DNA of 64,000 nucleotides, from the NCBI GenBank assembly GCA_034678605.1, contig JAXDBQ010000039.1:65172-129171 (forward strand), given 5' to 3'. The stretch comes from Patescibacteria group bacterium. GTDB lineage: Bacteria > Patescibacteriota > Minisyncoccia > Minisyncoccales > UBA5738. A program made the translations under genes and the position numbers. This document shows, piece after piece, positions 19,406-55,906 of the stretch (position 1 is the stretch's first letter; each line of letters starts with the position of its first letter). A model generated the notes under the pieces. That model had not been told where the DNA came from. It did not search any database and saw nothing but the letters and a program-made list of their open reading frames with translations.

Positions 19406-20266
19406 TTAATTCAAGCAGTATTCTCCGCCGCCCAGATTGCGGAGGAGATTGTTCATTTCCATTATCGAGATCAGCGCCATTATTTTTTGGGCGGGCAAGT
19501 TGCTTTCGCGGATGATCTGGTCCATAGTTTTGGCGCCGTCAATTAACGCATCGATGATTTTTTGCTCTTCGGGTGTGAGCGCGGCGGCGGTTTTGGCCGG
19601 TCCGGGCAAAATTTCCAGCGCGTCTAAGATATCTTGCGCGCCGGTCGCGGGTGATCCGCCATTTTTTAATAACCAATGGCAGCCGGCCGAATTAGCCGAA
19701 TAGATCGAGCCGGGCACGGCAAACACCGGTTTGCGCTGTTTGCGGCCCCAGTCGGCGGTGATCAGCGAGCCGGATTTTTCCTTGGCTTCGACCACCACCA
19801 CGGCGCGGGCAAGGCCGGCAATGATGCGGTTGCGCTGGGGGAACGAATAGTTGGTGGGCATGAATTCCGGCGGATACTCGCTGATCAAACACCCGCCATT
19901 ATCAACCACCTTGCGCGCCAAGTCAAGGTTTTGCCGCGGATAAAACGAATTTTGGCTTAGCCCGGCGGCGATCACGCCGATGGTGAGGCCGTGGTTTTCC
20001 AGCGCGGCTTGGTGAGCCAGCGTGTCAATGCCTGGCGCCATTCCCGAAACCACGCCCACGCCCGCGCGCGCTAATCCGGAAACAATGTCGTGGGTTGCTT
20101 GCTTGCCATAGACCGACGGAATCCGGCTGCCCACCACGGCGACGATCGGAGTTTCCAAGTCCAGGGTGCCGCGCAAATAGATTTGTTTGGGCCGGCTGGC
20201 AATCAACCGCAAACACGCGGGGAATTCCGCGCTGTCTTCAGGGATATGTTTTATAACGTCGTCCAT
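19406..20266 (-). CDS. dprA: DNA processing protein DprA/Smf
   Basis: 286 aa. The sequence VAVVGSRIPSVYGKQ...SGMAPGIDTLAHQAAL...VVVVEAKEKSGSLITA is the Rossmann-like DprA core. Confidence 0.85.
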   Translation of the reverse strand: MDDVIKHIPEDSAEFPACLRLIASRPKQIYLRGTLDLETPIVAVVGSRIPSVYGKQATHDIVSGLARAGVGVVSGMAPGIDTLAHQAALENHGLTIGVIAAGLSQNSFYPRQNLDLARKVVDNGGCLISEYPPEFMPTNYSFPQRNRIIAGLARAVVVVEAKEKSGSLITADWGRKQRKPVFAVPGSIYSANSAGCHWLLKNGGSPATGAQDILDALEILPGPAKTAAALTPEEQKIIDALIDGAKTMDQIIRESNLPAQKIMALISIMEMNNLLRNLGGGEYCLN

Positions 20267-20429
20267 TTTTCCTCCGCTGTTTTTTTACTATTTCACTATA
20301 CACTATTTTTTTGCTTGCAAAAAATTTTGCCAGGCAACCGCTCGACAGGGTTGTGCATCTCGCATCCATTCCTCCTTTTGTAAAGGAGGTGGCGCGTAAT
20401 CGCGCCGGAGGATTTTTTGATTCAAATTT

Positions 20430-39872: not shown

Positions 39873-41366
39873 ATGGTTTATCCGCAGATATTTTTGTGGG
39901 GGTGTTGCGCGGCGCTGGTTGGGGTGGGGGCGGCGTCGCTGGTTGGGATTTCAAATTTTTTGTTTTGGTTGTTGGCGGCGGGAGCCATTTTTTTGTTTTT
40001 GGGCGGTTTGATCGGCCGCAAGCATAAAATTGCCGTGGCTGGAATTTTTTGCTTTTGTTTTGTTTTGGGATTTTGGCGGTTTAAGGTTGCGTGGCAAAAA
40101 ATCCAAGATAATGATTTGAAAAAATTAAACGGCCAAACCGTGGAAATCAGCGGCCGGATCGCCAATGATCCGGTTTTGAGCGAGGCCAGCCAGCAAATTA
40201 TTTTGCGGCCCGACGGACTCAAGGGAAAGATCTTGGTACTGGCGAGCCGCTGGCCGGAATACAAATATGGCGATGTGATAAAATTCACGGCCAACTTGGA
40301 AGCGCCGCAACCGTTTTCCGGATTCGATTACAAAAACTATTTGGCCAAGGACGGGATTTATTCAATGGCTCGCTATCCGGAAATTGAGTTGATCGGCCGG
40401 GGCGAGGGCAATTTGATCTATTCGGGATTGCTGCGGATCAAGCACAAACTAAAAGCGGGGATTGGCCAGGCAATGCCGGCGCCGCACAATTCATTGTTGA
40501 TCGCGATCTTGTTGGGTGACCAAAGCGGGTTGTGCGATTGTTCGGCCAAGGAATTGGCGGCCGATCCGGAGTGCGCCAAATTGAAGGAAAAAATGAACAT
40601 TGCCGGATTGCGCCATTTGGCCGCGGTTTCGGGCGCGCACGTGGCGATTATGGCCAATATTATCGCGCCGTTTTTAATCGCGTTGGGATGGTGGCGGCAA
40701 AAAGCGTTGTGGGCAACGCTGGCGTTCGTTTGGCTGTTCGTGGCGATGATCGGCTTGCCGGCCTCGGCCGTGCGGGCGGCAATTATGGGCGGGTTGATGA
40801 TTGTGGCCAAAATTATTGGCCGGCCGGGCGAAAGTTTGCGCTTGATGGTGATCGCCGCTTTTTTTATGGCCTGGCAAAATCCACTGGTTTTGCGATTTGA
40901 TGTCGGGTTCCAATTGTCGTTTTTGGCGGTGGCGGGCATGATATTTTTTGCCCGGCCGATCGAATTCAAATTAAAAGCATTGCCGGAATTTTTGCGCCAA
41001 TCAATTGCGGTGACATTGGCGGCGTTTGTTTTCACCTTGCCGCTGTTGGCCTATAATTTTGGCAATGTGTCGGCCTATGGCTTGCCGGCCAATGTGCTGG
41101 CCGGGCCGATCGTGCCGTTTATCACGATCTACGGCTTTGTGTTGGCGATTGCCGCGGCGATTGGCCCGATTTTGGGTTGGCTGTTGTTCTTGCCGATGTG
41201 GTTGGCGTTATCCTATTTGTTGGTGATCGCCAACATATTTTCGCAATTACCCGGCGCCAAATTAAGTTTTGAAATCGGACATTTCTGGCTGGCGTTATCC
41301 TATTTTATTTTGGGTATTATCGCTTGGCGCGCCAAAGAAAAACAAAAACTGGAAAATTTGATTTGA
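39873..41366 (+). CDS. comEC: ComEC/Rec2 competence membrane channel (no beta-lactamase domain)
   Basis: 497 aa and polytopic, with a DUF4131-like N-terminus and the core GLRHLAAVSGAHVAI. Confidence 0.85.
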   Translation: MVYPQIFLWGCCAALVGVGAASLVGISNFLFWLLAAGAIFLFLGGLIGRKHKIAVAGIFCFCFVLGFWRFKVAWQKIQDNDLKKLNGQTVEISGRIANDPVLSEASQQIILRPDGLKGKILVLASRWPEYKYGDVIKFTANLEAPQPFSGFDYKNYLAKDGIYSMARYPEIELIGRGEGNLIYSGLLRIKHKLKAGIGQAMPAPHNSLLIAILLGDQSGLCDCSAKELAADPECAKLKEKMNIAGLRHLAAVSGAHVAIMANIIAPFLIALGWWRQKALWATLAFVWLFVAMIGLPASAVRAAIMGGLMIVAKIIGRPGESLRLMVIAAFFMAWQNPLVLRFDVGFQLSFLAVAGMIFFARPIEFKLKALPEFLRQSIAVTLAAFVFTLPLLAYNFGNVSAYGLPANVLAGPIVPFITIYGFVLAIAAAIGPILGWLLFLPMWLALSYLLVIANIFSQLPGAKLSFEIGHFWLALSYFILGIIAWRAKEKQKLENLI

Positions 41367-41390
41367 CAGGCGGGAGCGGGGGGGCAAAAT
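41363..41390 (+). promoter_or_regulatory. cassette A promoter: TTGACA-16 nt (ending G7)-CAAAAT
   Basis: The block tgatTTGACAggcgggagcGGGGGGGcaaaat has its -35 overlapping the comEC stop. The block is conserved at 43774 and 54535. Confidence 0.65.
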
Positions 41391-41491
41391 AGTCAAAAAG
41401 TAAAAATGAAAAAGTAAAAATTGGAATTAAAATCCAATTTTGAAAAATAACCTTCAAAGATCAAAAATAATAATAAGATTTTTGAAAAAAT

Positions 41492-41878
41492 ATGGTTAGA
41501 GAAAATTTATATACTGAAGCAATTGAAATCCAAGAAGAGGGTGAGCCGAAAGTTGAAGTTTTTAAAAATATAGGCGATGGGGCGGATGTAGAAATCAGTT
41601 CTTTTATCGAAGAAGGCAAAAAAAATAAGGTGACAAGCGTTTTAGCATTGTCGTCAATTTTGGGGATTGTATCGTCGGAAGTGATATCAATGGCAAAAAA
41701 TATTATTGTTGCCGAGGTTTTACAAATTGCACCGCGAACTCCGGATTATACCGCTGCTTTAATCGATTTGGATAATGTTTCCGCGGGGATGCTTATTGCT
41801 TCCTTAATTTTGGGTGGGGCTGCTTTGCGAAGTTACGCGAAATCGTTGGAAAAAAATTCAGCTATAACCGAAAAATAA
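41492..41878 (+). CDS. cassette A variable protein (acidic N-terminus, two hydrophobic segments)
   Basis: 128 aa with no known motif. It occupies the same position as 43893-44801 and 54713-55180 in the paralogous cassettes. Confidence 0.55.
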   Translation: MVRENLYTEAIEIQEEGEPKVEVFKNIGDGADVEISSFIEEGKKNKVTSVLALSSILGIVSSEVISMAKNIIVAEVLQIAPRTPDYTAALIDLDNVSAGMLIASLILGGAALRSYAKSLEKNSAITEK

Positions 41879-41932: not shown

Positions 41933-42304
41933 ATGGATAACAAAAATCAACAAATGCAGGAAGCGTTGAAAAAGGTTTATACAATTCTTAAATTCAGTGA
42001 GAAAGAGGTTAAGGACGCGTTAAATGACTTGGCGGGGATTCAGCAGGTGGCGGTGGCCACCGAGTTGGTGAAGGTTTTGACCGAAGATGAGGTGAAAACG
42101 CTCAATGATTTGGCGCAAAAGAGCGACGCGGAGAAAAAGGCGGCCATGGAGCAGATCGCCAAGGCGCACGCGGGTGACGAAAATTTCAAAAAGGCGGCGG
42201 CCGAGGCGGCCAAAAGGGTGGTTGACGAGCATGCGGCTTATCTGAAAACCCGGGGCGACGAGGCGCAAAAGGCCGAGATTGCCAAGATCCTTTCGGAAAT
42301 TTAA
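41933..42304 (+). CDS. cassette A conserved ~123-aa helical protein
   Basis: It is near-identical to 55374-55742 and homologous to 44825-45196. All three share the end DEHxxYLKTxGDEAQKAEIAKIL. Confidence 0.75.
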   Translation: MDNKNQQMQEALKKVYTILKFSEKEVKDALNDLAGIQQVAVATELVKVLTEDEVKTLNDLAQKSDAEKKAAMEQIAKAHAGDENFKKAAAEAAKRVVDEHAAYLKTRGDEAQKAEIAKILSEI

Positions 42305-43719: not shown

Positions 43720-43734
43720 AAAAAATCGCGAAAT

Positions 43735-43766
43735 GGCGCAAGGATTTACCTTGCGCCGTTTTTTTG
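43735..43766 (+). terminator. intrinsic terminator
   Basis: GGCGCAAGG-attta-CCTTGCGCC is followed by gTTTTTTT. Confidence 0.85.
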
Positions 43767-43773
43767 TATTGAT

Positions 43774-43802
43774 TTGACAGGCGGAAGCGGGGGGGGTATT
43801 AT
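43774..43802 (+). promoter_or_regulatory. cassette B promoter: TTGACA-17 nt (ending G8)-TATTAT
   Basis: The sequence is tgatTTGACAggcggaagcGGGGGGGGTATTAT. Confidence 0.7.
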
Positions 43803-43816
43803 TAAGGCAAAAGTCT

Positions 43817-43846
43817 GCGCCGGAGGCGCATCCGCCCTTTGGCGGA
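43817..43846 (+). promoter_or_regulatory. two-hairpin module in cassette B leader
   Basis: The sequence is GCGCC-gga-GGCGC-a-TCCGCC-cttt-GGCGGA followed by aaaaa. Confidence 0.6.
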
Positions 43847-43892
43847 AAAAGGCAAAAGGCAAAAGTGAAAGTCAAAATTAAAAAGTAAAAAT

Positions 43893-44801
43893 ATGTCATT
43901 TGAAAATCTAGATAAAACAGAATCTTTATCAGAAAGATTTCAAGGAGTTGTGGATAATTTGGGTGGTTTGTTGAAAGCGCAAGAGGATAAGTTGCGTCAA
44001 GCGATTGGCGATTTGTCTTGCGACAGAAGAACTTGTTGCGTGGCGCTGACAGCATTAATGTTGGCAAAAACCGCGTTTACCCCGGATTTGCTGGAAGCGG
44101 GGATAACGGCGGGTGATTTGATCGGATCGCTGGGTTTTGGCGGCGTGGATTTGAATGCTGGCCTTGACAATTTCGATGTTGATGGCGTTTTGGCGCAAGC
44201 GGAAGTCGTTGAAAATCCGATCGCGAGTAAAAACAATATGTCCGGCTATCATTCAATGAAAGTTGCCGCGGAAGCTCCGTTGCCGCCGCATCCCGCCGAT
44301 CAAAAGGGAATACCGATTGCCAATCTTGCCGAACAAGGGGCGAATCCACATCCTGCGCAAGCGGACGCGGAAAAGATTTTTGGCGGCAGTGGTAGCGGGG
44401 ATAACGGTCATGGCCGGATAAATGAAACTTTGGATGTGAAAAATACGCTTCCGGTCGCGGAAAAACTTCCTTCAATAGATGATTCGGGGTCGGAAACGAT
44501 TATTCCGGCAAGCGCGGACCAGTTGGATCGCGATGTGCAAAATCCCGACGGATCGAATGACGGTGGAGATTCTAAAAATATTGATGGCGATCTCGGTAGT
44601 CGCGAGAACATTGGCACTCATCATATCGAAAGCGGTCATGACAAAACCAGAGTTGATTTGAGCGGGGCGCATGAAGGCGGGCAAGAAGCGGTTGAACTTG
44701 GTTCTCGCACGGGCGCGGATAGCGTTGGCGGGAAAATACAAGATACCAGCGGAAAAGCCGGCAGGGATCTTGCCAAAAATATATTTAATAAGAAATCTTG
44801 A
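43893..44801 (+). CDS. cassette B variable protein (long D/G/S-rich, low-complexity)
   Basis: 302 aa with weakly hydrophobic segments near residues 45-95, then an acidic tail that looks disordered. No known motif was seen. Confidence 0.55.
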   Translation: MSFENLDKTESLSERFQGVVDNLGGLLKAQEDKLRQAIGDLSCDRRTCCVALTALMLAKTAFTPDLLEAGITAGDLIGSLGFGGVDLNAGLDNFDVDGVLAQAEVVENPIASKNNMSGYHSMKVAAEAPLPPHPADQKGIPIANLAEQGANPHPAQADAEKIFGGSGSGDNGHGRINETLDVKNTLPVAEKLPSIDDSGSETIIPASADQLDRDVQNPDGSNDGGDSKNIDGDLGSRENIGTHHIESGHDKTRVDLSGAHEGGQEAVELGSRTGADSVGGKIQDTSGKAGRDLAKNIFNKKS

Positions 44802-44824: not shown

Positions 44825-45196
44825 ATGATCCAAGATATTCAAAAAATTAATGATTGCGTGGCCAGGATTTATGAAATCCTTGAGTTTGCGCCGGAACAAA
44901 TCGAGGAGTTAAAGGGTGATTTGGCCAAGGCGCAACAAGCGGCCGCGGCCGCGGAAATGTTGAAAAATCTAACTCAAGATGAACTAAAATCGATCGATGA
45001 GGCGGCGCAAAAATCCGATGGAGAGAAAAAAGCCGCGATAGAGCAGATTGTTAAGTCGCGTGCGGCCGATAAAAATTTAAAACAAGCCGCGGCGATAGCG
45101 GCCAAGAAGGTTTTGGATGAACATATTGATTATTTGAAAACCCAAGGTGATGAGGCGCAAAAAGCCGAGATTGCCAAGATTTTGGCCGAGATGTAG
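44825..45196 (+). CDS. cassette B conserved ~123-aa helical protein
   Basis: It is homologous to 41933-42304 and 55374-55742, with the same invariant C-terminal block. Confidence 0.75.
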   Translation: MIQDIQKINDCVARIYEILEFAPEQIEELKGDLAKAQQAAAAAEMLKNLTQDELKSIDEAAQKSDGEKKAAIEQIVKSRAADKNLKQAAAIAAKKVLDEHIDYLKTQGDEAQKAEIAKILAEM

Positions 45197-45200
45197 AATT

Positions 45201-45350
45201 TGTGTTTTGTATTCCGTAGGGGCGAAACTATGTTTTCGCCCTTTTGCGTTAAATACGGGCAAATGATTATTTGCCCCTACGATGCGAATGCGGATAAATC
45301 GGGCGATTACATAGAATCGCCCCTACAAATACAAATACAAATGCAAATGC
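45201..45350. repeat. GC-rich GTAG REP composite (3 hairpins), copy of 7588-7708
   Basis: The order cGTAGGGGCGAAActatgTTTTCGCCC, GGGCAAATgatTATTTGCCCCTAC, GGGCGATTacataGAATCGCCCCTACaaatacaaatacaaatgc matches the earlier copy. Confidence 0.9.
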
Positions 45351-54398: not shown

Positions 54399-54522
54399 CA
54401 TTTCGTAGGGGCGGGCTTTATGCCCGCCCTTTGTGTTGCAACAAAAAGAATGCGGGCGGGCACAAGGCCCGCCCCTACGGAACGAATGCGAATGCAGGCG
54501 AAAACACAGTTTCACTCCTATG
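54399..54522. repeat. GC-rich GTAG REP cluster directly upstream of cassette C promoter
   Basis: It reads cGTAGGGGCGGGCtttatGCCCGCCC ... GCGGGCGGGCacaagGCCCGCCCCTACgg ... aggcgaaaacacagtttcac (degenerate). Confidence 0.85.
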
Positions 54523-54534
54523 GCGAACGTTGAT

Positions 54535-54564
54535 TTGACAGGCGGGAGCGGGGGGGGGTATTAT
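54535..54564 (+). promoter_or_regulatory. cassette C promoter: TTGACA-18 nt (ending G9)-TATTAT
   Basis: The sequence is tgatTTGACAggcgggagcGGGGGGGGGTATTAT. Confidence 0.65.
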
Positions 54565-54582
54565 AAAATAAATTAAAAATTT

Positions 54583-54612
54583 GCGCCCGAGGCGCATCCG
54601 TCCTTTGGCGGA
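54583..54612 (+). promoter_or_regulatory. two-hairpin module in cassette C leader
   Basis: The sequence is GCGCC-cga-GGCGC-a-TCCGTC-cttt-GGCGGA followed by aaaaa. Confidence 0.6.
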
Positions 54613-54712
54613 AAAATTCAAAAGTCAAAATTGAAAGGCAAAAGTAAAAAGTTGGAATTCAATTTTGGTAATAATCGTCAAAGATTAAAACCAATATAAT
54701 CTTTGAAAAAAT

Positions 54713-55180
54713 ATGGAAGGAGAGCCACAATACGAAACTTCTTCAGAATATCTGGAGAAAGTAGCAGATGCTGGCGATGAAGACGCGCATATGGGAGAAG
54801 GAGCGCCAGAGAGTTTGGATTTAGAGAAAATAGATTCGGAAATTTCTGATGTAATAACAAAAGAAGCGGCAGCGAAACTGGAGGCGGGAGAATCTCCTGA
54901 TTCTGTTGAAGTTTATTTGCAAAGGGCAAGTATGCTCAAAAGTCGATTATTCGATTATATTCGAATGACTTGGGAGAAGCATCCGGGTGGTGTGGCCTTT
55001 TCTGTCGGTTGGATAAGTATTCTGTCTCTTTTTCTATGGACGCAACTTGTTGATTATGTACCGGCAGAAACTACTTTGGGCAAAATTATGTTTGCGGTTT
55101 GGGGTGCTGGGTCTTTAGCGGCGTGGCCATTAAATGCGGCGAGGGACAAGGCAAATTCGGAGGGAACCTCGAGAAAATAG
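54713..55180 (+). CDS. cassette C variable protein (acidic N-terminal half, two C-terminal TM helices)
   Basis: 155 aa. The hydrophobic segments are VAFSVGWISILSLFLWTQLV and IMFAVWGAGSLAAWPL. No known motif was seen. Confidence 0.55.
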   Translation: MEGEPQYETSSEYLEKVADAGDEDAHMGEGAPESLDLEKIDSEISDVITKEAAAKLEAGESPDSVEVYLQRASMLKSRLFDYIRMTWEKHPGGVAFSVGWISILSLFLWTQLVDYVPAETTLGKIMFAVWGAGSLAAWPLNAARDKANSEGTSRK

Positions 55181-55373: not shown

Positions 55374-55742
55374 ATGGAAAATCAACAAATGCAGGAAAAA
55401 TTAAAACAGGTTTACGCGGTACTCAAATTCAGCGAGAAGGAAGCCAAGGATGCGTTAAATGATTTGGCCGGGATTCAGCAGGTGGCGGTGGCCACGGAGT
55501 TGGTTAAAGTGTTGACCGAAGACGAGGTGAAAACTTTAAATGAGCTGGCGCAAAAGTCGGATGAGGAGAAAAAGGCCTTGATGGAGCAAATTGCCAAGGC
55601 GCATGCTGCGGATGAGGGATTTAAAGCGGCGGCCCAGGCCGCGGCCAAAAAGGTGATCGACGAGCACGTAGCTTATCTCAAAACCCGGGGCGACGAGGCG
55701 CAAAAAGCCGAAATCGCCAAAATTCTGGCCGAGATCGGGTAA
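55374..55742 (+). CDS. cassette C conserved ~122-aa helical protein
   Basis: It is near-identical to 41933-42304 (for example LNDLAGIQQVAVATELVKVLTEDEVKTLN is shared). Confidence 0.75.
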   Translation: MENQQMQEKLKQVYAVLKFSEKEAKDALNDLAGIQQVAVATELVKVLTEDEVKTLNELAQKSDEEKKALMEQIAKAHAADEGFKAAAQAAAKKVIDEHVAYLKTRGDEAQKAEIAKILAEIG

Positions 55743-55744
55743 GG

Positions 55745-55906
55745 TATTTGTATTTTTGCATTCGTAGGGGCGGGCCTTGTGCCCGCCCTTTTGCTGAAAT
55801 CGGGTATGGTGTTTGCATTTTGTATTTGTAGGGGCGATTCTATGTAATCGCCCTTTTGGGTTTGAATGCGGGCGAAAGCATAGTTTCGCCCCTACAATGC
55901 AAACGC
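55745..55906. repeat. GC-rich GTAG REP cluster (3 hairpins) directly downstream of cassette C
   Basis: It reads cGTAGGGGCGGGCcttgtGCCCGCCC ... GTAGGGGCGATTctatgTAATCGCCC ... GCGGGCGAAAgcataGTTTCGCCCCTACaatgc. Confidence 0.9.

Follow-up and report, generated by a model that had tools for sequence, protein, structure and literature searches.

An uninterrupted run of seven to nine G residues was found in the promoter spacer of each of three paralogous gene cassettes in the window, by which the whole 64 kb stretch of analysed DNA (47% G+C) is meant. Judging from its recurrence in related loci, this run is a real, conserved and length-labile promoter-spacer homopolymer. It represents a credible but unproven slippage-based dial of gene expression.

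The preliminary description of this DNA had placed tracts of 7, 8 and 9 G within spacers of 16, 17 and 18 nt, behind TTGACA and GGCGGrAGC. All of its coordinates and lengths were reproduced (Table 1), the three motifs lying at 41363, 43774 and 54535, and a census of runs agreed with the accompanying claim that the 64 kb contain no further G or C run of 7 or more; C runs of 6 or more are completely missing from the window, and G6 runs occur four times (3774, 20695, 31807 and 47239). The three runs lie on the sense strand, at corresponding places within a repeated promoter core of 28 nt, TTGATTTGACAGGCGGrAGCG(n). This core is 93-100% identical among cassettes A, B and C, yet it carries three different tract lengths. 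The conserved second gene of the cassettes displays 62-79% identity at the DNA level, compared with the 93-100% of the promoter core. The number of runs was found to be unexceptional, since runs of at least 7 are expected 5.6 times in the window under an iid model and 2.2 ± 1.4 times under a third-order Markov model, and three were observed. An argument from an improbable count of G runs was rejected on the basis of this expectation of 2-6. The case rests instead on the placement of the runs and on their conservation.

The tracts are embedded in sequences that closely resemble sigma-70-type promoters, with predicted near-consensus hexamers, 16, 17 and 18 bp apart in A, B and C, upstream of a putative transcription unit. 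The promoter match score was 11/12 for B and C and 10/12 for A. In the 19 kb that were scanned (39-58 kb), B and C were the top sigma-70-type matches, B ranking first. All three promoters are intergenic, that of A overlapping the stop codon of comEC, whose TGA (41364-41366) falls within the -35 hexamer TTGACA. The initial claim that the tract sits inside the spacer of a convincing sigma-70-type promoter is supported by the scores of B and C, by the strong intrinsic terminator, with its stem at 43730-43762 and a T run, just upstream of B and by the conservation of the hexamers in orthologs, and we infer that TTGACA and TATTAT form an active promoter. The -10 box of cassette A (CAAAAT) is degraded when compared with its ortholog in the sister strain L016 (TATTAT, spacer 17), so A is probably the weakest of the three promoters for reasons other than the length of its tract. 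The promoters do not carry an extended -10 element: in GGG-TATTAT the G at -14 is present and the T at -15 is absent. Cassette B had been proposed as the optimal copy on account of its 17-nt spacing. This is uncertain, as six of seven tract-less relatives have an 18-nt spacer, the one found in C.

Each promoter heads a two-gene unit, in which a variable membrane-type gene 1 is followed by a conserved gene 2 encoding 122-123 aa. The products of gene 1 (128, 302 and 155 aa) are mutually unrelated; they have an acidic N-terminus and a basic tail, and contain one or two hydrophobic segments. The gene 2 proteins, of which exactly three copies are present in the window, are 54-85% identical to one another. 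When the six cassette proteins were searched against Pfam, NCBIfam, PADLOC and PHROGs, nothing was detected above noise. The AlphaFold model of the 123-aa gene 2 protein consists of six helices (pLDDT 89), and no significant PDB match was obtained for this protein by sequence profile or by Foldseek of the model. Homologs of gene 2 form about 80 clusters, derived solely from Paceibacteria-type CPR metagenome bins.

Table 1. Cassette features in the window (positions in the window) and promoters of the corresponding cassettes in related loci (-35, non-G spacer part, tract and -10 as far as given; spacer lengths in nt)
Feature	Position	Strand	Description
Cassette A promoter	41363..41390	+	-35 TTGACA 41363-41368; 16-nt spacer; -10 CAAAAT 41385-41390; non-G spacer part GGCGGGAGC, between -35 TTGACA and G7
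Poly-G tract A	41378..41384	+	G7
Leader A	41391..41491	+	A-rich AAAAGTnAAA repeats; hairpin 41421-41442; conserved 9-bp stem 41454-41485 just before AAAAAATATG
Cassette A gene 1	41492..41878	+	variable 128-aa protein; hydrophobic segments; no family match
Cassette A gene 2	41933..42304	+	conserved 123-aa helical protein; Paceibacteria-only family
Intrinsic terminator of upstream AAA_14/DUF4143 gene	43730..43769	+	14-bp stem and T run; ends 5 nt before the B -35
Cassette B promoter	43774..43802	+	-35 TTGACA 43774-43779; 17-nt spacer; -10 TATTAT 43797-43802; non-G spacer part GGCGGAAGC, between -35 TTGACA and G8
Poly-G tract B	43789..43796	+	G8
Leader B	43803..43892	+	GC hairpins 43817-43829 and 43832-43845, then A-rich repeats up to ATG
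Cassette B gene 1	43893..44801	+	302 aa; hydrophobic stretch near residue 50; long acidic/Gly-rich tail; no family match
Cassette B gene 2	44825..45196	+	123-aa helical protein; 54% identity to A and C copies
Terminator-like hairpin after B gene 2	45216..45250	+	GTAGGGGCGA..TCGCCCTTTT; common to cassette C
Cassette C promoter	54535..54564	+	-35 TTGACA 54535-54540; 18-nt spacer; -10 TATTAT 54559-54564; non-G spacer part GGCGGGAGC, identical to A, then G9
Poly-G tract C	54550..54558	+	G9
Leader C	54565..54712	+	GC hairpins 54583-54595 and 54598-54611; A-rich repeats; hairpin 54652-54667; conserved stem 54678-54706 before AAAAAATATG
Cassette C gene 1	54713..55180	+	variable 155 aa; acidic N-terminus; TM-like segment; no family match
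Cassette C gene 2	55374..55742	+	122-aa helical protein; 85% identity to A copy
Terminator-like hairpin after C gene 2	55828..55862	+	
Sister strain L016 (GCA_964551425.1, syntenic), A			TTGACA-ggcgggttgc-G7-TATTAT; spacer 17
L016, B			ggcggaagc-G9; spacer 18
L016, C			ggcgggctgc-G8; spacer 18 (10-nt non-G part + G8)
L017			TTGACG-cccggccagc-G7-TATCAT; spacer 17
L018			cggggcgtt-G9; spacer 18
L019			cgggggatt-G10-TAATAT; spacer 19
L021			ggcagcgct-G9; spacer 18
L022			ggcaacatc-G10; spacer 19
L026			cccgcccagc-G8; spacer 18
L044			cgaggcatt-G7 (spacer 16) and cgaggcgtt-G8 (spacer 17)
L048			cgaggcgtt-G9; spacer 18
L053			cgaggggtt-G9; spacer 18
L028, L031, L036			tract-less; spacer cttggaagcggcatattg
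L059			tract-less; mixed sequence
L025			tract-less; AT-rich spacer
L034			tract-less; GGGGGCGG (G-rich, interrupted or short 3' spacer end)
L035			tract-less; GGGG (G-rich, interrupted or short 3' spacer end)

The cassette leaders are A-rich and 90-148 nt long. At the gathering threshold, Rfam detected only a tRNA in the whole window, and a permissive Rfam scan of cassette C returned only chance hairpin matches (miRNA models) to the upstream palindrome. Since neither promoter nor leader was matched, they do not correspond to a known RNA family. The source of the spurious miRNA-model matches is a composite 82-nt palindrome upstream of cassette C.

Several repeated elements were observed in and around the leaders. 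A conserved 9-bp hairpin, TCAAARATY...RATYTTTGA, is located 3-6 nt before the AAAAAATATG of gene 1, at 41454-41485 and 54678-54706 of the window and also in L016, L017, L018, L019, L021 and L022. Covariation across 9 sequences was observed for two of its base pairs. A Shine-Dalgarno sequence is not visible, and the hairpin may serve to control translation of the cassette. Repeats of ~10 nt, rich in A (AAAAGTnAAA / CAAAAGG), are found in the leaders at 41391-41430, 43845-43890 and 54612-54655, as well as in orthologs of several species. Paired GC hairpins, GCGCCnGAGGCGC and CCGyCCTTTGGCGG, are common to the leaders of B (43817-43845) and C (54583-54611) and to L044-L048; they are absent from A-type leaders, which suggests that the leader itself is modular. 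In addition, REP-like GC hairpins, GTAGGGGCG...CGCCC(C), some of them with T runs, lie around the cassettes at 45216-45250, 45300-45328, 55828-55862, 55869-55897 and 54401-54482.

Related loci were retrieved by means of the conserved gene 2 and not of the tract, which provides an unbiased test of whether orthologs lack the tract. Its absence from orthologous loci, which had been named as an outcome that would speak against phase variation, was not observed: 16 cassette promoters in relatives keep an uninterrupted G7-G11 abutting the -10 box. Among 17 orthologous or paralogous promoters, the -35 hexamer TTGAC[A/G] is kept, and so is the -10 hexamer TA[T/A][T/C]AT with the exception of CAAAAT in cassette A of the window. 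Over more than 20 cassette promoters across species, TTGAC[A/G/T] and TA[T/A][T/C]AT are kept, and the 5' half of the spacer and the leaders diverge. Without exception, the tract is pure and adjoins the -10 box, in the sister strain as well as in the more distant species (L017 to L053 in Table 1), whereas the 8-10 nt before it vary freely (ggcgggagc, cccggccagc, cggggcgtt, ggcaacatc and others). Not one interruption was found in the ~140 G positions of 16 promoters, while the adjacent spacer bases diverge. Uninterrupted runs of about 7 or more between -35 and -10 are thus present both here (G7/G8/G9) and in the orthologs (G7-G11). The spacers of the tract-bearing promoters measure 16 (n = 2), 17 (n = 4), 18 (n = 8) or 19 nt (n = 2). 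Seven more distant relatives have tract-less promoters, with a spacer of 18 nt in six of them and of 17 nt in L025.

The tracts are confined to these loci. In 273 kb of related Paceibacteria DNA, 40 G or C runs of at least 7 were counted, and all 40 are inside these cassettes: 35 at the promoter position, 2 at the same site but truncated at contig starts, and 3 inside cassette ORFs. Both in the 64-kb window and in the 273 kb of related DNA, the tracts therefore mark specific loci against a background without them. A search for TTGAC-N9-11-G7-TATTAT gave 0 matches in 2.9 million viral contigs, hence no sign of phage-borne cassettes. Extra G tracts within cassette ORFs were observed as a G7 within gene 1 of L021 (2727-2733) and as a G8 in the last gene 2 codons of L019 and L033 (4360-4367); these are possible variable sites of the frameshift type.

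When tract lengths were compared in related strains, they were found to be polymorphic between otherwise identical sequences (L044/L048, L019/L033 and L040/L010). Compared over 842 nt, L044 and L048, which come from different studies, differ only by G8 vs G9. Over 8.3 kb, L019 and L033 show a single point difference, a T>G that lengthens the tract at its 5' edge from G10 to G11 and leaves the spacer at 19; a 17-nt indel, CAAACGCGGTGCGCGGG, downstream of gene 2 (L019 4471 vs L033 4472-4488) is the only other difference. Between L040 and L010, the latter being the strain of the window, the sole indel in 3.6 kb is the B tract, with G9 vs G8. The polymorphism consists of these three events only, the other loci being invariant.

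Within a strain, the lengths proved to be stable. For tract A, G7 was recovered in at least 8 additional independent assemblies, which stem from no fewer than 4 studies, and tract C is G9 in 4 further Logan assemblies (runs). Tract B is G8 in 2 further contigs (L002/L010 and L011), one of them present in 4 samples; the sister haplotype in L016 and L040 has G9. The L053 locus of a related species is G9 in four assemblies despite 2-10 SNPs. The identical consensus length across all assemblies of one strain means that no switching is visible at the consensus level. The phase-variation reading of the preliminary description was thus only partly sustained: the promoter setting, the tracts of the orthologs and the length polymorphism speak for it, and the fixed consensus length within a strain speaks against it.

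Three further observations bear on free switching. L040 (ERZ926494) is a recombinant with respect to L010, with 4 SNPs in 3.27 kb up to the B promoter followed by 10 SNPs in 320 nt, and its breakpoint is located at or adjoining the B poly-G tract. The G8/G9 difference at B coincides with this boundary of the recombinant haplotype, which points to a single event and not to recurrent switching. Tract length also offsets the non-G part of the spacer (10+7, 10+8, 9+9, 8+11), a trade-off that argues for stabilising selection on total spacing rather than for free toggling. Finally, tracts of G7-G9 are at the short end of those that vary experimentally, which counts against switching here. On evolutionary time, as far as these comparisons go, no other feature of the promoter changes as readily as the tract.

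The proposed mechanism is the following. A sigma-70-type promoter (TTGACA ... TATTAT) would transcribe each cassette, the 3' half of its spacer being the uninterrupted poly-G that abuts the -10 box. By slipped-strand mispairing in replication, a G would be gained or lost, and the -35/-10 distance would shift within 16-19 bp. The changed spacing would retune the binding of RNA polymerase, giving a graded volume control and not a strict on/off switch. In this way the three paralogous cassettes could be set independently, heritably yet reversibly, to different expression levels. The chances that poly-G slippage alters the -35/-10 spacing and so dials the transcription of each cassette independently are judged to be about even. 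From general sigma-70 behaviour and by analogy with porA and tp0126 (PMC3639595, PMC7864442), a change in spacing would be expected to alter transcription. Switching is presumed to be frequent and selected enough to count as phase variation, and its selective rationale is a conjecture. Features of contingency loci are present in these cassettes, namely several paralogs per genome, a gene 1 that is swapped between close strains, TM-like segments and the ORF G tracts of relatives.

Alternatively, the G run could be a conserved cis-element with a direct sequence-specific role, the differences in length being tolerated drift within 16-19 bp. It might serve as the site of a lineage-specific regulator, as a rigid G·C spacer that sets geometry or supercoiling sensitivity, or as the provider of a G at -14 for an extended -10-like contact. 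This explanation is a serious possibility, although on balance we doubt it. Direct selection on G would equally account for a tract that is pure and holds its place against the -10 box across species, and the stability of consensus lengths within strains is in line with it, as are the compensating changes of tract and non-tract parts (9+9 vs 10+8 at C; 9+10 vs 8+11 in L019/L033). Distant relatives display spacer ends that are G-rich but interrupted or short (L034, GGGGGCGG; L035, GGGG), which also fits and suggests that G-richness is older than the homopolymer. However, a fixed length would be expected for a sequence-specific site, and tracts from 7 to 11 with a spacing from 16 to 19 were observed. 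The same hexamers occur with AT-rich or mixed spacers in L025, L028, L031, L036 and L059, so the tract is dispensable for the promoter. Moreover, no candidate regulator was found, and the TG of the extended -10 consensus is replaced by GG.

The history of the cassettes was approached through a neighbour-joining tree of the gene 2 proteins, in which an A/C type, mostly tract-bearing, is separated from a B type. Within the B type, the tract is found only in the lineage of the window. The B promoter core is identical to those of A and C at 27 of 28 positions and the B protein is only 54% identical, which indicates that a tract-bearing promoter module has evidently been copied between paralogous cassettes. 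At cassettes A and C, gene 1 is replaced in the syntenic sister strain L016. At cassette A the sequences are unrelated (41492-41878 of the window vs 6553-7017 of L016; 128 vs 154 aa), and the same holds for cassette C (54713-55180 vs 19799-20353; 155 vs 184 aa), whereas gene 2 is 83-85% identical between these strains and the promoter is also conserved. The swap looks like a gene-cassette replacement between conserved flanks. With gene 1 replaced while gene 2 is kept, the cassettes are mosaics of exchangeable modules.

Regarding their surroundings, the neighbourhoods of the cassettes differ among species (L044-L048, L053-L054, L057-L058, L060-L065), and toxin-antitoxin genes (PemK, HicAB, ParE/YafQ), AAA_14/DUF4143 ATPases and DUF6938 genes are frequent neighbours. 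The Pth / S26-peptidase region of the window (about 21.3-22.7 kb) contains no cassette, and L044-L047 have one or two there.

The exchange of promoter modules leads to a further explanation, by which the tract would be a selectively neutral by-product, a slippage-expanded G-rich end that was spread by this exchange with little phenotypic consequence. It can draw on the 27/28 identity of the B core in spite of the 54% identity of the proteins, and on the B-type cassettes of other species, which are without the tract. Besides, sigma-70 holoenzymes can use any 16-18 bp spacer. This explanation is nevertheless considered unlikely: neutral homopolymers are expected to decay by substitution, the ~140 G positions of the 16 promoters are free of interruptions while the neighbouring spacer bases diverge, and G/C runs of 7 or more are otherwise avoided by the genome.

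A G-quadruplex had been offered earlier as an alternative. That such a structure (or an i-motif on the opposite strand) regulates transcription is very improbable. Although the GGCGGGAGCG7-9 of the window can be written as four GG runs, i.e. a two-tetrad motif, this motif is missing in 3 of 17 promoters (L017, L026 and cassette 1 of L044) in which the tract is still kept. The canonical four-run G3 motif is present in just 1 of the 17, and the tract would be upstream of the transcription start, and so not in the RNA, if the promoter reading is right. A promoter G-quadruplex element was rejected, as the motif is not conserved.

Homopolymers are error-prone; contigs L046 (1-7) and L049 (1-7) begin exactly inside the tract, and L038 (1561-1580) ends in an implausible G20, 9 nt after TTGACT. 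Such assembly breaks or poly-G read artefacts make the lengths at contig ends unreliable, and the terminal G20 of L038 was discounted, being probably an artefact of poly-G reads that extends a real tract. For the three sites of the window, it is scarcely credible that the length differences are sequencing or assembly errors, and this was rejected because each length was exactly reproduced in independent assemblies from different pipelines (Logan, ENA/MEGAHIT, NCBI WGS).

Returning to slippage as the preferred reading of the tract, its significance lies in the host. The CPR/Patescibacteria constitute a large and almost uncultivated share of bacterial diversity and are thought to live attached to other cells. 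To our knowledge, almost nothing is known about their gene regulation and surface variation. Switches of this type are well known, and what is new is the lineage of the host together with the family of genes. If the tracts switch, the contingency loci of pathogens would operate also in environmental ultra-small bacteria, an uncharacterised two-gene cassette would be flagged as being under fluctuating selection, and existing metagenomic reads would directly yield a simple marker. If they do not, the comparison still defines cleanly a CPR promoter as well as a spacer element, the G tract, that is specific to the lineage.

A broader interpretation can be put forward tentatively, and we consider it more doubtful than assured. 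The cassettes could constitute a contingency-locus family ('phasome') of CPR/Patescibacteria, made of modular units (a promoter with poly-G, a structured leader rich in A, a membrane-protein gene that can be swapped and a conserved helical partner) whose promoters are exchanged between paralogs and whose tracts switch independently. The outcome would be a combinatorial expression of envelope proteins in ultra-small episymbionts, for host attachment or phage evasion. If this were true, it would mark the first description of phase variation by simple sequence repeats in the Candidate Phyla Radiation. No usable information on mismatch repair in CPR bacteria came out of a literature search. For Patescibacteria or CPR, literature searches turned up no paper on phase variation mediated by repeats, the nearest being that on the coding repeat of a Gracilibacterium (PMC6851277).

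In that case, a hypervariable gene of Gracilibacteria (CPR) contains a 9-mer coding repeat that alters the protein sequence (PMC6851277). It resembles the cassettes as a slippage-prone repeat locus in CPR under diversifying pressure (PMC6851277), and it differs from them in being a coding repeat within one gene and not a promoter homopolymer that would control transcription. A close parallel in promoter architecture is Neisseria meningitidis porA, where the poly-G tract in the -35/-10 spacer sets the spacing and expression is graded (PMC3639595; PMC7864442 discussion). There, too, a G homopolymer forms part of a sigma-70 spacer and its length determines the distance between the hexamers. In contrast, the porA tract comprises 9-11 G, its switching and selection (antibody escape) have been demonstrated, and its product is a known outer-membrane protein, whereas the cassettes described here carry 7-9 G (7-11 in relatives), are candidates for switching, belong to an uncultivated CPR host and encode proteins that match no family.

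In Treponema pallidum, the tp0126 tract is situated in the -35/-10 interval, and a spacing of 17 nt gives the best transcription (PMC7864442). This bacterium is also difficult to grow in culture, its genome is reduced, and with tp0126 and tprE/G/J/F/I/L it has several paralogs, each with its own variable promoter poly-G (7-11). The tracts of the tpr genes, unlike those of the cassettes, closely precede the transcription start (by 4 nt in tprL) and are not clearly in a -35/-10 spacer. Heterogeneity of length within isolates and reporter effects were measured in T. pallidum, the cassettes being characterised here by comparison of sequences, and the gene families are unrelated. The vlp system of Mycoplasma hyorhinis consists of paralogous surface-protein genes with near-identical promoters, in which the spacer poly-A mutates independently, leading to combinatorial expression. 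Its products are lipoproteins with signal peptides, and its switching has been shown experimentally. The tract of vlp is poly-A instead of poly-G, and its logic of independently mutating spacer homopolymers matches that of three cassettes with G7, G8 and G9. The promoters of the cassettes are therefore proposed as candidates for a new phase-variable promoter of the porA, tp0126 and vlp type, possibly the first in CPR bacteria.
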